Source: an uncultured Clostridia bacterium
GTDB lineage: Bacteria; Bacillota_I; Bacilli_A; RF39; UBA660
Assembly (NCBI GenBank): GCA_946619755.1
Contig: CAMOMI010000002.1
Location: 1-61,771, forward strand
Direction of reading: 5' to 3'
Length of the DNA stretch: 61,771 nt
The stretch's first letter is position 1; each line of letters starts with the position of its first letter. The notes below the pieces were generated by a model. It had not been told where the DNA came from, ran no database searches, and worked only from the letters and a program-made list of their open reading frames with translations. Below, piece after piece: positions 35,958 through 43,713 of this stretch. The position numbers and the translations under genes are program-made.

Positions 35958-36149
35958 CTATTCTCCTTCCGTATTTAACTCTGATAACTCCTCTTCAATA
36001 GCATCTATTCTATTGTTTTGATCTTGAATTATTTTTATTACTGCAAATAATCCAATTCCTACTAAAACAAATCTAAAATTAATTTTCTTAGTTAACTTTT
36101 CTATTGTTTCAGTATTTCTAGTAATACCTCCTATTAATACGTCGATCAT
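35958..36149 (-). CDS. Small membrane protein
   Basis: 63 aa with TM FRFVLVGIGLFAVIKII. Confidence 0.55.
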   Translation of the reverse strand: MIDVLIGGITRNTETIEKLTKKINFRFVLVGIGLFAVIKIIQDQNNRIDAIEEELSELNTEGE

Positions 36150-36165
36150 TTGAAGCTCCTCCTTT

Positions 36166-36708
36166 CTAACTTATTGTATTTAAATACCAACACACTTGTG
36201 TCCATATTTCAACGTCTCTAAGATCTTGATCACAATTACGAATATAGAATAGGCCTCCTTTTCCATTCGGTTCATAACGTCTCTCTAAAAATCTATAAAT
36301 ACGTTCATTGACATATTTGTCATCATAAATATCATCTGACATCATACCGATACCAATATTTGACAGCATACCCCAAAACCATTGTTGAGTTCTGTCACCA
36401 TAACTTGGGTCGTCCATGATTTGTTCTTCAATTCTAATAGCTAAAGCTAATATCATTTCTAGAACACTACATGGTTCATCTAAAATATCAAAAGCCTCGT
36501 CATTGTTTATAACAGTTCCGAAGCGATACCTCAGGTTAACTCCATCCATGGCTCTATTGACATCGTTACGTATATAAAAGTCAAATTGTGTATTATGCAA
36601 ATTCATAAATAATTTTCTAAATGATGTTTTTTCATTAATTCGTCCTTTACAAGCGTAGTTATACAGCCATTCGAAATATCTATTTCTAACCTGATCTTGA
36701 TAATTCAT
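36166..36708 (-). CDS. Hypothetical protein
   Basis: 180-aa ORF in the track. Confidence 0.6.
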   Translation of the reverse strand: MNYQDQVRNRYFEWLYNYACKGRINEKTSFRKLFMNLHNTQFDFYIRNDVNRAMDGVNLRYRFGTVINNDEAFDILDEPCSVLEMILALAIRIEEQIMDDPSYGDRTQQWFWGMLSNIGIGMMSDDIYDDKYVNERIYRFLERRYEPNGKGGLFYIRNCDQDLRDVEIWTQVCWYLNTIS

Positions 36709-37286
36709 TATTCAGTATCTCCTCCTGTAACTTCATAAAAATGTTTTTCAGAGATTAATATTTCATAGTCAGTTTCATCTTGTTCATTTCTTACAAGAAC
36801 CCTTTCAATATATTTGTCTTTCTTAAACTCTTCTAAAGCATCACCAACTGTCGTAAATTTATCTTCGACTTCAATATCTTCGTCAGTTGCTAATATATTA
36901 TCTCTGTAATACCAATATAATGTTTTTTGATCATAATCTTCCTCACCAAATTCTTCTTCAGATATAACATAAGGAGCTACTCCATCATGTTCTCCTTTTG
37001 GATCATCTATTATCCCATTAGATAGTTCTTCATCAGAATCTGATTGTACTGGTCTTTCAATTGAGACCACATTATTTCTTCTACTGTTTCCCTCATAATT
37101 GGGATTGGGATTTTCATCTGGAACTCCAATATGTGTTTCTTCAAGTTGATCCCTATACGCTTTAAATCTTGTAACTACATCATTTATTTCATCATCAGCT
37201 TTTTTCTCATAATGTTTTTTAACAAAATACCAAGTGGCACCAGCACCTACACCAGCACCAGCTAAGAATATTAATACATTTTTCAT
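36708..37286 (-). CDS. N-terminally anchored acidic protein
   Basis: 192 aa with N-terminal TM MKNVLIFLAGAGVGAGATWYFV. Confidence 0.6.
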   Translation of the reverse strand: MKNVLIFLAGAGVGAGATWYFVKKHYEKKADDEINDVVTRFKAYRDQLEETHIGVPDENPNPNYEGNSRRNNVVSIERPVQSDSDEELSNGIIDDPKGEHDGVAPYVISEEEFGEEDYDQKTLYWYYRDNILATDEDIEVEDKFTTVGDALEEFKKDKYIERVLVRNEQDETDYEILISEKHFYEVTGGDTE

Positions 37287-37290
37287 ATTT

Positions 37291-38205
37291 TTATTCCTCC
37301 CATTCTAAATTTCCTAATATATTTCCATCAACATTAAAATCTAAAAGTATATTACGTTCGTATCCATTTACAAAAGCTCTTTTTCTTTCATCAGTTACAT
37401 CATATATACCAAAGTCTACATAATTATCTCCATTGCTATCCCATTTCCAACCAACTACTTGACCTGCTTTTGTTTTAGGAATACCTAACATAGCATATAC
37501 GTCATTTAAAAATAAATATCCTTTACATTTTAATACTTCATTTGCATAATCTTGTTGTTTTCTTAAAAACATTAAATTATACTCAGAATCTTTTTTCCAT
37601 TGATCTGAAGACTCCTCAAAAAATCTAGCATAGGGGCTTATATCTTTAATATTCCCATCTATCTCATAAACTGTCTTCTTTACTTCTTTTCCTTTTTCAT
37701 CTTTTTCTATAATTTCTTTAGCTTTAATTCCATATTTAAGTTCTTTATCTACTTCTTCACCAAATCTTTCAACTACATTTTTTCTATAATTTTTAAATCC
37801 TTTATCTAATGCAAAATATGCAGCACCTAAAGAAGCATACCTTTTCTTTAATATTCTTTGTCCAAATAATATAGATGCAATTGATAAAGTACCTAATATT
37901 ATTGCAGGACTATAAACTTTTAATAATTTAACTCCTGTTTGTACATTTGTAACATAAATATCTTTCTTAGCGTCTTCTTCAGTATACTGTACCTCGTGAT
38001 CAGCAAGGCAAATTTTTATGTTTTCTTCTATTTGTTTCTTTTCAGCAAATATAGCATCTACTTTTCTAGTTGCTTTACATGCTAATACTGTGGCACTAAC
38101 ACCACCTATAATACCTAATGTAGTACAAATTTCAGGTGCATGCTTCTTAGCCTGAAATCCTACGGTATGTATTACTCTGTTTAAATTTTCTGGTAATTTT
38201 AACAT
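37291..38205 (-). CDS. Two-TM membrane protein, paralogue family member A
   Basis: Shares KKHAPEICTTLGIIGGVSATVLACKAT... and ...SPAIILGTLSIASILFG...ASLGAAYFAL with 39216..39986 and 40221..40979. Confidence 0.65.
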   Translation of the reverse strand: MLKLPENLNRVIHTVGFQAKKHAPEICTTLGIIGGVSATVLACKATRKVDAIFAEKKQIEENIKICLADHEVQYTEEDAKKDIYVTNVQTGVKLLKVYSPAIILGTLSIASILFGQRILKKRYASLGAAYFALDKGFKNYRKNVVERFGEEVDKELKYGIKAKEIIEKDEKGKEVKKTVYEIDGNIKDISPYARFFEESSDQWKKDSEYNLMFLRKQQDYANEVLKCKGYLFLNDVYAMLGIPKTKAGQVVGWKWDSNGDNYVDFGIYDVTDERKRAFVNGYERNILLDFNVDGNILGNLEWEE

Positions 38206-38222
38206 ATTTTATTCTCCTCTCT

Positions 38223-38858
38223 TTAATCAATTGGGACTGCTCTAGGCATTTTAATCATAAAACCATCTCTAGTTCTAACAATTTCAGCTCTAGTTATATT
38301 AGTCCATCCATATTTATTATCTGTATAATTACCTGTTATACCTACAAGATCATATAAGTCAGCTACTCTTACTAATCCGTATGTATCCATTAATTCATCC
38401 ATTCTTGCTAATACATCTTCAGCTTCCCCTCGAGAAGGAAGTATAATATCATCATAAGAATACTGACCAGCAGTTAATACTTGTCTTTCATTCATGTGAG
38501 GTCTACTATAAGAACCTCCATCATAATAGTTTCTATATGATACTCTATCTGCTGTAGAGCGTCCTCTACCTTTTCTAGATTCACCATATAATATTATATC
38601 TATACCATCCGTAACAATATCTGAAATGGCTTTTTTAATCGCTGGTATTAATACATCTCCAAAAATATAAGACTTAACACTAGGCGCATCTTCAGAGATT
38701 ATATTACCCATAAATTTGTCAAACAATCCCTTTTTCTTACGTTTGACTGTACCTGTTACTACTTTTTCTGTAACTCTCTTTTCAGTAAGTTGTTCTGATG
38801 CTTTTTTCTGTTCTTCTTTATACTTATGAGAGTTTGGTGGATAATTTTGAATTTTCAA
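38223..38858 (-). CDS. Hypothetical protein
   Basis: 211 aa with a TTG start after AGAAAGGAG. Confidence 0.55.
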   Translation of the reverse strand: MKIQNYPPNSHKYKEEQKKASEQLTEKRVTEKVVTGTVKRKKKGLFDKFMGNIISEDAPSVKSYIFGDVLIPAIKKAISDIVTDGIDIILYGESRKGRGRSTADRVSYRNYYDGGSYSRPHMNERQVLTAGQYSYDDIILPSRGEAEDVLARMDELMDTYGLVRVADLYDLVGITGNYTDNKYGWTNITRAEIVRTRDGFMIKMPRAVPID

Positions 38859-38874
38859 TTTTATTCTCCTTTCT

Positions 38875-38914
38875 AAAATAAAAATAAAAAGAGTATCTGT
38901 TTAATAGATACTCC
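38875..38914 (-). terminator. Intrinsic terminator
   Basis: Minus strand GAGTATCT-attaaac-AGATACTC followed by TTTTTATTTTTATTTT. Confidence 0.7.
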
Positions 38915-38932
38915 TTTAATCGATTAAAGACA

Positions 38933-42981: not shown

Positions 42982-43181
42982 CCAAAAGTTCCTATGTAAC
43001 CTAATGTTCCTAAGAATATTATAAATATTGGTCCTGTCACATCTGTCTCTCCAATTTCTTTAAGTATAAACATAGACAATATTCCTAATAGTATAGACAT
43101 TAATGCATAGAATCGATCGGTCAATACAATCTTTCTCTTTCTTAAATGTTTTCCTTTGTTTCTTTCTTGTTTAATTTTCAT
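42969..43181 (-). CDS. Small two-TM membrane protein
   Basis: 70 aa with FYALMSILLGILSMFILK and GPIFIIFLGTLGYIGTF. Confidence 0.6.
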   Translation of the reverse strand: MKIKQERNKGKHLRKRKIVLTDRFYALMSILLGILSMFILKEIGETDVTGPIFIIFLGTLGYIGTFGEDD

Positions 43182-43199
43182 AATTAATACCTCCTTAGT

Positions 43200-43232
43200 T
43201 TTCTATAATATAACATGTATTTCACGCGAAAA
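43200..43232 (-). promoter_or_regulatory. Phage promoter-like motif P3
   Basis: Minus strand TTTTTCGCG-TGAAATACATGTTATAT-TATAGAAAA. Confidence 0.55.
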
Positions 43233-43256
43233 ATAAAAGAGTCAATTAAGACTCTC
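43230..43256 (-). terminator. Intrinsic terminator
   Basis: Minus strand AGAGTC-ttaatt-GACTCT followed by TTTATTTTT, running into P3. Confidence 0.7.
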
Positions 43257-43260
43257 TATT

Positions 43261-43443
43261 TTATTCGTTAACACATAGATGATAATACACATATGCTTCT
43301 TCAACTGTTAAATCTTTGATACGATTAAAAATTTCATTTGGGCTATATCCTTCCTTCATTAATTTAGAATACTTTCCTAAACGAATTTGTTTAACCTTCT
43401 CTGGCTTTTCAATTGCTTTGAATCTTTCTACAATATTTTCCAT
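43261..43443 (-). CDS. Hypothetical small protein
   Basis: 60-aa ORF in the track. Confidence 0.55.
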   Translation of the reverse strand: MENIVERFKAIEKPEKVKQIRLGKYSKLMKEGYSPNEIFNRIKDLTVEEAYVYYHLCVNE

Positions 43444-43452
43444 CTTTTATTA

Positions 43453-43487
43453 CCTCCTATATAATAACATGTATTTCACGCGAAAAA
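43453..43487 (-). promoter_or_regulatory. Phage promoter-like motif P2
   Basis: Minus strand TTTTTCGCG-TGAAATACATGTTATTA-TATAGGAGG. The downstream box overlaps the RBS. Confidence 0.5.
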
Positions 43488-43511
43488 AGAAAGAGAGTCT
43501 GTTAAGACTCA
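43484..43511 (-). terminator. Intrinsic terminator
   Basis: Minus strand GAGTCT-taac-AGACTC followed by TCTTTCTTTTTT, running into P2. Confidence 0.65.
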
Positions 43512-43678
43512 TCTATCTTATTAAATACTTTCTTTAATTCATCAACGGAACCTTTTTTAATATTTATGATAATGTTACCATTATTTTTTCTTTGATTTTC
43601 AGCTCCAGCATCATAAATAATTTTACCAACTCCGAATAAGAATAAAGTTGTAAATACTCCATATAATAGATTTTTCAT
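43502..43678 (-). CDS. Small N-terminally anchored or secreted protein
   Basis: Start at 43678 (MKNLLYGVFTTLFLFGVGKII) after AAGAGGTGA. Confidence 0.55.
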   Translation of the reverse strand: MKNLLYGVFTTLFLFGVGKIIYDAGAENQRKNNGNIIINIKKGSVDELKKVFNKIDES

Positions 43679-43713
43679 AATAATCACCTCTTTCTTTCAA
43701 AAATATACTATTT

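Follow-up and report, generated by a model that had tools for sequence, protein, structure and literature searches.

A membrane-gene block ahead of the replication genes

The window analyzed here, a 61,771-nt contig (CAMOMI010000002.1) assembled with an uncultured Clostridia bacterium, carries just before its DNA primase/polymerase (PrimPol) gene a block of mostly small genes (35958..43687) rich in predicted membrane proteins. A first-pass annotation, made from the sequence alone, had counted 13 or more small membrane proteins in this block, three of them paralogous, and had proposed a diversifying battery of envelope-targeted proteins. We found that the block is a published hallmark of its phage lineage and not a private diversifying arsenal: in Arthrobacter phages of Clusters AM and AU, 14-16 membrane-protein genes without assigned function follow the tail genes (PMC5513430; Klyczek et al., 2017). 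With moderate confidence we read it as a conserved middle block with two layers. The first would comprise lineage core genes, namely three DUF6353 copies (C, B and A) with phrog_4079, phrog_4695 and phrog_4678, the last four leading into PrimPol. The second would consist of cassettes in which a promoter motif precedes a small gene, mostly for a single-pass membrane protein, and a weak terminator follows it.

Hydrophobic segments were predicted by Kyte-Doolittle (KD) hydropathy with a 19-residue window and a threshold of 1.6. Within the block, 11 of the 17 open reading frames (ORFs) of at least 40 aa lie above the threshold, compared with 6 of 68 outside the block (Fisher p 4e-6), which bears out a membrane-directed block. 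The earlier count of 13 hydrophobic ORFs is reached when copy B (KD 1.57) and a 20-aa mini-ORF are included; six further ORFs are soluble (Table 1). Ten small ORFs had been listed as hydrophobic, and nine of them proved to be so. The tenth, 41483..41714, is not a single ORF: its 232 nt are not a multiple of three and hold the mini-ORF and a 33-aa soluble ORF, and two ORFs are likewise present in the relatives L003 and L004.

For comparison we used 38 related loci searched by tblastn (L001-L038: OhMyWard, Dynamite and 36 IMG/VR loci). A strong AGGAGG-type ribosome-binding site (RBS) precedes every start in the block, and the ratio of nonsynonymous to synonymous substitutions (dN/dS) against L004 is 0.15-0.57 for all small ORFs that have a match there, no gene exceeding 1; we therefore regard the small ORFs as genes. 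They do turn over quickly: their sequence matches are limited to relatives with a protein identity of at least 76%, position and architecture being kept nonetheless. Across 31 loci, the 8.5 kb before PrimPol contain a median of nine hydrophobic ORFs among 13-20. The whole promoter-gene cassette of the 65-aa single-pass protein is missing in L003 and L004 but present in L006 (100% identity) and L005 (41%), a gain or loss of entire cassettes between near relatives.

The annotation had held that no function can be assigned from the sequence, and we agree: all PHROG matches of the block proteins are to families without assigned function, and 8 of the 17 proteins have no PHROG match at E <= 0.01. 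An NCBIfam scan of the 17 proteins gave nothing meaningful. PADLOC, whose library covers defense and not counter-defense, returned at E <= 0.01 a single borderline row for the same proteins, a ZorA match for copy B (E 0.0098) without an aligned stretch.

The window represents an entire circular or permuted siphophage genome of ~62 kb, because the tape measure gene crosses both of its ends. It makes up all of one contig within a bin totaling 826,659 bases, and a small bacterial genome of ~0.8 Mb lies in the same bin. All non-nested ORFs of at least 100 aa are on the - strand. PHROG scans, which covered 49 of the window's ORFs of at least 100 aa, gave the order terminase, portal, fused protease-capsid, major tail protein, tape measure, tail proteins, holin-like gene and endolysin, followed by the region of small membrane genes, primase/polymerase, annealing protein, helicase, sigma-like protein, ParB-like protein, an RNA polymerase resembling RNA-dependent RNA polymerases (RdRP-like) and HNH. 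No integrase family was found among these 49 ORFs at E <= 1e-5, and the phage is virulent-looking.

Marker genes place the phage in the 1706 / FP_oengus / AM-AU-DJ-BI lineage, in which Lactococcus phage 1706 and Faecalibacterium phages are joined with Arthrobacter AM/AU, Gordonia DJ and Streptomyces BI phages. The window encodes PrimPol (phrog_4210), the RdRP-like polymerase (phrog_4291) with helix-turn-helix (HTH) ends, and the fused capsid-protease (phrog_3270), and these markers are 47-50% identical to their counterparts in Dynamite and OhMyWard. The lineage uniting actinophages with Lactococcus 1706-like and Faecalibacterium phages is defined in bioRxiv 10.1101/842583. No near-identical phage DNA turned up when the region was compared by megablast with 50,697 phage records.

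The DUF6353 paralogs

Copies A, B and C belong to Pfam PF19880 (DUF6353; phrog_2152), scoring 250.4, 257.2 and 171 bits against a gathering cut-off of 25 and covering positions 2-250, 2-252 and 2-232 of the 253-position profile. They align with 25-29% identity and 38 invariant columns, including K21, P24, I26, T28, G34, K96, Y98, P100, L126, A128-A129-Y130, G252 and W253. All the motifs by which the annotation had grouped the three are present in this alignment, and its start for copy B at 39986 is right, since homologues are 256 aa long. Two N-terminal hydrophobic helices are followed by a C-terminal domain with a GW motif, in which the G is kept in 98% and the W in 96% of 134 sequences. Of the two helices, the second has only low hydrophobicity in copy B (KD 1.34) and copy C (KD 1.32).

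The paralogs stand in one gene order across the 38 loci, which range from phages of the bovine gut to those of Arthrobacter and Gordonia: C (where present), B, phrog_4079, A, often phrog_4695, phrog_4678 and PrimPol. Three copies are present in 9 complete loci (all within L003-L012, L006 being cut off), two in 23 and one in 5. A quick maximum-likelihood tree of 81 copies, in which long branches were flagged, separated copies downstream of phrog_4079 (34 rows) from those upstream of it (45 rows) with a Shimodaira-Hasegawa-like approximate likelihood ratio test (SH-aLRT) value of 100. This is the split of A from B plus C; the C clade (11 rows) reached 98. Against L004, dN/dS is 0.09-0.14 for A, B and C. 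The paralogs are three old lineages under purifying selection and core genes of the phage lineage. Given the three old clades, the constant gene order and the low dN/dS, they are not a diversifying set, and this part of the earlier proposal is not supported.

DUF6353 is abundant, with 12,049 clusters at 50% identity in a profile search and 3257 proteins in a word-indexed search. It occurs in 237 GenBank phage records, most of them with two places, and this PrimPol in 253. The record counts of the two are identical for phages of Arthrobacter (95), Gordonia (55), Streptomyces (54), Curtobacterium (7), Rhodococcus (4) and Microbacterium (4). In Lactococcus phage 1706 a single DUF6353 gene, orf51, precedes the polymerase gene by 2 kb. 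The domain is rare in cellular genomes, being found by Pfam search in 3 of 400 of the phylum sample, the window's own bin included. A literature search found neither the name 'DUF6353' nor 'phrog_2152'.

Membership in the two-helix effector family SLATT was rejected: only 3 of 134 DUF6353 members match SLATT_1, the best at E 0.035, which misses the cut-off and is at noise level; a co-match to 8xMP in Pfam, in 1 of 134 members, is likewise noise. Outside the window, the 491-aa protein P0391 joins DUF6273 (43-182) to a full DUF6353 (251-487); it comes from a single contig with three member sequences and is too isolated to interpret.

The AlphaFold2 model of copy A, built from a 149-row alignment, has a predicted local distance difference test score (pLDDT) of 90.5 and consists of a long hairpin of two helices (23-68 and 76-148) followed by an alpha/beta domain. 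Going by residue numbers, the hydrophobic stretch 25-43 would face 97-115, leaving a two-helix stalk that reaches ~25 residues beyond the membrane. The C-terminal domain of copy B, modeled alone, reached a pLDDT of 90.7 and a predicted template modeling score (pTM) of 0.81. Searches of the PDB with this domain gave a best Foldseek E-value of 0.53 and a best VIA Z of 2.9, to POTRA domains of BamA and too weak to use, with 24 of 48,161 chains at Z >= 2; by these fold searches the modeled domain has no solved relative. Matches of the full copy A model in the PDB (best Foldseek E-value 0.29, best VIA Z 8.3) were generic helical hairpins only and were discarded. The DUF6353 profile had a single chance-level match among PDB sequences (E 0.03), and for copy A the ESM Atlas returned nothing but DUF6353 clusters. 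In BFVD, copy A matched uncharacterized Siphoviridae proteins, Lactococcus phage P118 and stand-alone C-domain proteins of 99-131 aa.

We infer that DUF6353 proteins are helical hairpins with both termini inside, the stalk on the outer face of the membrane and the acidic alpha/beta domain in the cytoplasm. As a rule, Firmicutes avoid cysteine in exported proteins, and cysteines of the C-domain, kept in 61% and 81% of family members, mildly favor a cytoplasmic location.

Copy A lies in a compact run of genes, the gaps along phrog_4079, A, phrog_4695, phrog_4678, the 63-aa gene and PrimPol being 17, 4, -1, 16 and 3 nt. In a profile comparison, the C-terminus of phrog_4079 ('VADLYDLVGI..YGW') resembled the C-domain helix and 'LNDFY..LGL..GW' of DUF6353 (E 0.0014, 38 columns, probability 18%), and phrog_4079 may be a fourth, soluble relative of this domain, a likeness that is suggestive only. 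A complex prediction for copy A with phrog_4079, run without controls, scored 0.12 against a mark of 0.32 and is evidence neither way. The phrog_4079 profile had a single match in the PDB, at E 0.78, and phrog_4678 had no PDB profile match and no usable match in the ESM Atlas.

Promoter-like motif and cassette layout

The annotation had given most units private promoters and terminators. A scan for the sigma-70 consensus was at chance (66 found, 63.9 +/- 9.0 expected), but another, promoter-like motif and terminator-like hairpins are enriched. The 26-nt motif CGCG-N17-WATRR is found at 11 sites on the coding (-) strand, where 0.46 are expected; it reads CGCG, ~5 W, ACA, N5, a TATAAT-like element and RR. 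Nine copies fall within 39183..43742, each in the gap just before a gene, one follows PrimPol, one lies farther on, and none is in the structural block. CGCG is no canonical -35 element, because at ~15 nt upstream of TATAAT it is too close. Among the relatives, L003-L010 and L012 have 4-11 matches and L011 has one; the small-gene region of Arthrobacter phage Dynamite (L002 3405..9777) has nine copies with a near-perfect TATAAT.

Terminator-like hairpins number 19, against 2.7 +/- 1.5 expected, and have T-rich tails and folding energies of -5.7 to -12.8 kcal/mol. Nine units carry the promoter-like motif, and eight end in such a hairpin. In the window and in L003-L012, each core unit is preceded by the same arrangement of promoter motif, small (usually single-pass) membrane gene and hairpin, the motif or hairpin being undetected at one or two of the three positions in several of L008-L012. 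The leader gene encodes 120 aa before copy C, 44-70 aa before copy B, and, before the phrog_4079-to-PrimPol operon, 72-115 aa with an acidic-membrane-basic-acidic architecture. Because the cassettes sit directly before C, B and this operon, the core genes would be transcribed by read-through.

A bovine-gut RNA library, X6, covers parts of the region. Its deepest contig (depth 58.5) spans 38996..39175 over the 73-aa leader gene, stopping 8 nt beyond the motif; beyond the leader hairpin, depth is 3.2 on the next piece and ~3 on neighbors. X6 is one metatranscriptome library that may contain DNA, its contigs cannot show level, ends or strand, and uncovered parts mean nothing, so that this pattern is a hint at most and not proof of expression.

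A phage-encoded reader of the motif is plausible. The RdRP-like polymerase has HTH matches near residues 100-135 and sigma-70 region-4-like matches at 959-1000, and its homologues in Dynamite (gp98, annotated 'hypothetical protein') and OhMyWard are 47-48% identical to it. An RdRP-like polymerase with HTH domains at both ends was described previously (bioRxiv 10.1101/842583).

Elsewhere in the genome, of two genes listed together in Table 1, one encodes a small protein matching a 'sporulation protein' PHROG and the other is ParB-like; these matches could be clues to the type of host or to genome partitioning.

Table 1. Positions of genes, motif copies and hairpins in the 61,771-nt window. dN/dS is against L004.
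Feature	Position	Strand	Remarks
58-aa protein, N-terminal hydrophobic helix	43502..43678	-	KD 1.68; no PHROG/Pfam match; only in L003, L004, L006; dN/dS 0.15
60-aa soluble protein	43261..43443	-	KD -0.01; own promoter motif and terminator
70-aa protein, two hydrophobic segments	42969..43181	-	KD 1.87 and 1.66; dN/dS 0.42
65-aa single-pass protein	42697..42894	-	KD 1.88
114-aa soluble protein, phrog_4074	42225..42569	-	E 2.9e-12; KD 0.57
73-aa soluble protein	41992..42213	-	soluble in KD scan
47-aa single-pass protein	41786..41929	-	KD 1.85; dN/dS 0.16
20-aa hydrophobic mini-ORF	41652..41714	-	strong RBS; directly after terminator, without own promoter motif; 34-35 aa in L003, L004
33-aa soluble ORF	41483..41584	-	35-36 aa with ATG start in relatives
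120-aa helical protein, C-terminal hydrophobic segment; leader gene of copy C	41065..41427	-	KD 1.61, marginal; kept as far as L010
DUF6353 copy C, 252 aa	40221..40979	-	dN/dS 0.14
46-aa single-pass protein, leader gene of copy B	40029..40169	-	KD 2.05; position-conserved small membrane ORFs in L003-L012
DUF6353 copy B, 256 aa	39216..39986	-	3257 relatives
73-aa protein, leader gene of replication operon	38933..39154	-	KD 2.16; acidic N-terminus, membrane helix, basic stretch, acidic tail; same architecture in L003-L013
phrog_4079, 211 aa, soluble	38223..38858	-	E 7e-67; always just before copy A; 35/38 loci; 6871 relatives
DUF6353 copy A, 304 aa	37291..38205	-	40-42% identity to actinophage copies
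phrog_4695, 192 aa, N-terminal hydrophobic helix and acidic remainder	36708..37286	-	tblastn matches (E <= 1e-4) in 13/38 loci
phrog_4678, 180 aa, soluble	36166..36708	-	E 2.4e-54; conserved beside PrimPol; 31/38 loci
63-aa single-pass protein	35958..36149	-	KD 2.12; 3 nt before PrimPol
PrimPol, 1339 aa	31935..35954	-	phrog_4210, E=0; last operon gene; 46-58% identity to actinophage and gut phage copies
Motif CGCG-N17-WATRR, copies 1-5	43717..43742, 43457-43482, 43203-43228, 42925-42950, 42656-42681	-	
Motif CGCG-N17-WATRR, copies 6-9	41965-41990, 41468-41493, 40195-40220, 39183-39208	-	
Motif CGCG-N17-WATRR, other copies	31757..31782, 20396..20421	-	first one after PrimPol
Terminator-like hairpin after endolysin gene	43904..43932	-	T-rich tail
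Other terminator-like hairpins	43495-43510, 43236-43257, 42961-42983, 41744-41767, 41025-41048, 40010-40031, 38887-38917	-	
Endolysin	43938..45161		directly upstream of the block
Holin-like gene	45281..45571		upstream of the block
Sigma-like gene	26096..26845		no match in four records searched
Small protein and ParB-like gene	21425..21757 and 24368..25096	-	one phrog_35646 (E 6e-26), the other phrog_12305
RdRP-like RNA polymerase, 1002 aa	16423..19431	-	phrog_4291
Fused protease-capsid protein, 637 aa	7200..9113	-	phrog_3270, E 9e-208; same fusion as in Arthrobacter AM/AU phages
Tape measure gene	2..4384 and 59558..61771	-	crosses both ends of the window

Possible roles and comparison with known systems

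Tentatively, the DUF6353 paralogs, perhaps with their small membrane neighbors, could build a membrane platform that is needed around replication and serves the replication operon. The small membrane genes, which turn over fast, would act as accessory factors in the envelope or in host takeover, and exclusion, takeover or anti-defense, the roles named by the annotation, are possible for them. A fuller version is improbable when taken as a whole: DUF6353 and the paired upstream single-pass proteins would form the platform, with a cytoplasmic domain of a fold absent from the PDB, the platform would tether or gate PrimPol-driven replication in a phage lineage that spans Actinobacteria and Firmicutes, read-through of weak terminators would set dosage, and the RdRP-like HTH polymerase of the phage would read the CGCG-N17-TATAAT-like promoters.

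Several observations weigh against our reading. The two copies are far apart in Dynamite and OhMyWard, where 4-5 kb with many genes separate B from A. The co-occurrence of DUF6353 with PrimPol may reflect shared descent only, because the whole genome architecture is inherited together in this lineage (bioRxiv 10.1101/842583). As to topology, the positive-inside count is indecisive, with 6.0 K+R on the N and C flanks versus 4.7 on the loop flanks, and in copies B and C the second helix is of weak hydrophobicity. The acidic character of the C-domain (24.5 D+E versus 16.2 K+R) argues against direct DNA binding. Finally, the only RNA evidence consists of short contigs from one metatranscriptome library, possibly with DNA in it.

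The main rival, which we regard as doubtful, makes the entire block, DUF6353 included, an envelope-directed accessory battery that blocks superinfection, takes over the host envelope or counters membrane-based defense and is dispensable for growth on a naive host. The membrane targeting of 11 of the 17 ORFs agrees with it, as do the fast turnover of the small ORFs, with one cassette missing in L003 and L004, and the provision of a promoter motif and terminator for each small gene, a layout familiar from the host-takeover module of phage SPO1. Virulent phages do carry exclusion genes, such as imm and sp of T4. Against it stands that the DUF6353 copies, phrog_4079 and phrog_4678 belong to the lineage core and keep a constant order, dN/dS being 0.09-0.14; moreover, no gene shows a dN/dS above 1, and PADLOC, as a library of defense and not of counter-defense, matched nothing meaningful among the 17 proteins. 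We think it hardly believable that AT-rich sequence gave rise to the small hydrophobic ORFs by chance and that they are not genes at all. The region does have a low G+C content (28-31%, within 27-35% for the window), and close to half of its proteins lack a PHROG match; this is outweighed by the RBS before each start, the dN/dS values, the position and architecture kept in relatives and the enrichment of hydrophobic ORFs over the rest of the genome.

Small size and one or two membrane helices are typical traits of holins, and the block adjoins the lysis genes, so that it could also be a lysis-control module whose holins, antiholins or timing factors act with the endolysin and the holin-like gene. 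This is unlikely. A hairpin and a new promoter motif separate the endolysin gene from the block, no holin family was found in it by Pfam (12 proteins, E <= 0.1) or by PHROGs and NCBIfam (all 17, E <= 0.01), and in Arthrobacter AM/AU phages the endolysin gene is upstream of the terminase gene, far from the array (PMC5513430). Still less likely, DUF6353 proteins would be carried in the virion and ejected to form a DNA conduit in the host membrane. Their long helical hairpin, shared with many hairpin proteins, and tail or ejection chains of T7 among the weak matches (8e4g_a, E 2.3; 7ey7_A, Z 6.6) speak for this, but long helices in general reach such scores. In addition, the DUF6353 genes are not part of the structural block; they follow the lysis genes, are under a motif absent from the structural region, and by their spacing are co-transcribed with replication genes.

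DUF6353 is very abundant and core in a lineage that crosses two bacterial phyla, and its C-domain is without a solved relative. With cultivable relatives on Arthrobacter, Gordonia, Streptomyces and Lactococcus hosts, the membrane module, the promoter and the layout are directly testable. Taken by itself, the window yields mostly a clarification.

The model for the proposed role is phage phi29, in which p16.7 and p1, membrane-anchored early proteins encoded beside replication genes, organize DNA replication at the membrane; p16.7 combines a single membrane helix with a DNA-binding domain. DUF6353 differs in its two-helix hairpin and acidic C-domain. No p16.7-like chain was among its sequence and fold matches, and absence from the fold list does not exclude likeness. 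In the SPO1 host-takeover module, small genes are clustered, many of them having a promoter, a strong RBS and a terminator to themselves, and some encode membrane proteins. The block has no sequence relation to this module, uses a motif that is not the sigma-A consensus, and has conserved core genes interleaved.

The AM/AU arrays belong to the same lineage and occupy the same genome position, with 14-16 membrane genes against 13 here and the fused capsid-protease in both; like arrays are reported for Rhodococcus phages Pepy6 and Poco6 (PMC5513430). The window differs in coming from a low-GC bovine-gut phage, and its small genes have no detectable sequence likeness to those of the actinophages. 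The available text of PMC5513430 on AM/AU mentions no promoter motif, whereas one is seen in the window, and the main text of bioRxiv 10.1101/842583 does not contain the word 'membrane'. Dynamite gp42 and gp57, OhMyWard gp49 and gp57 and 1706 orf51 are full-length matches to the DUF6353 hidden Markov model, as are the window's copies. The actinophage proteins are 33-42% identical to the latter and have the same order upstream of PrimPol, with phrog_4079 and phrog_4678. The gut clade (the window and L003-L012) differs from the actinophages in having the third copy, C, and in placing its core genes behind cassettes of promoter, small gene and terminator.

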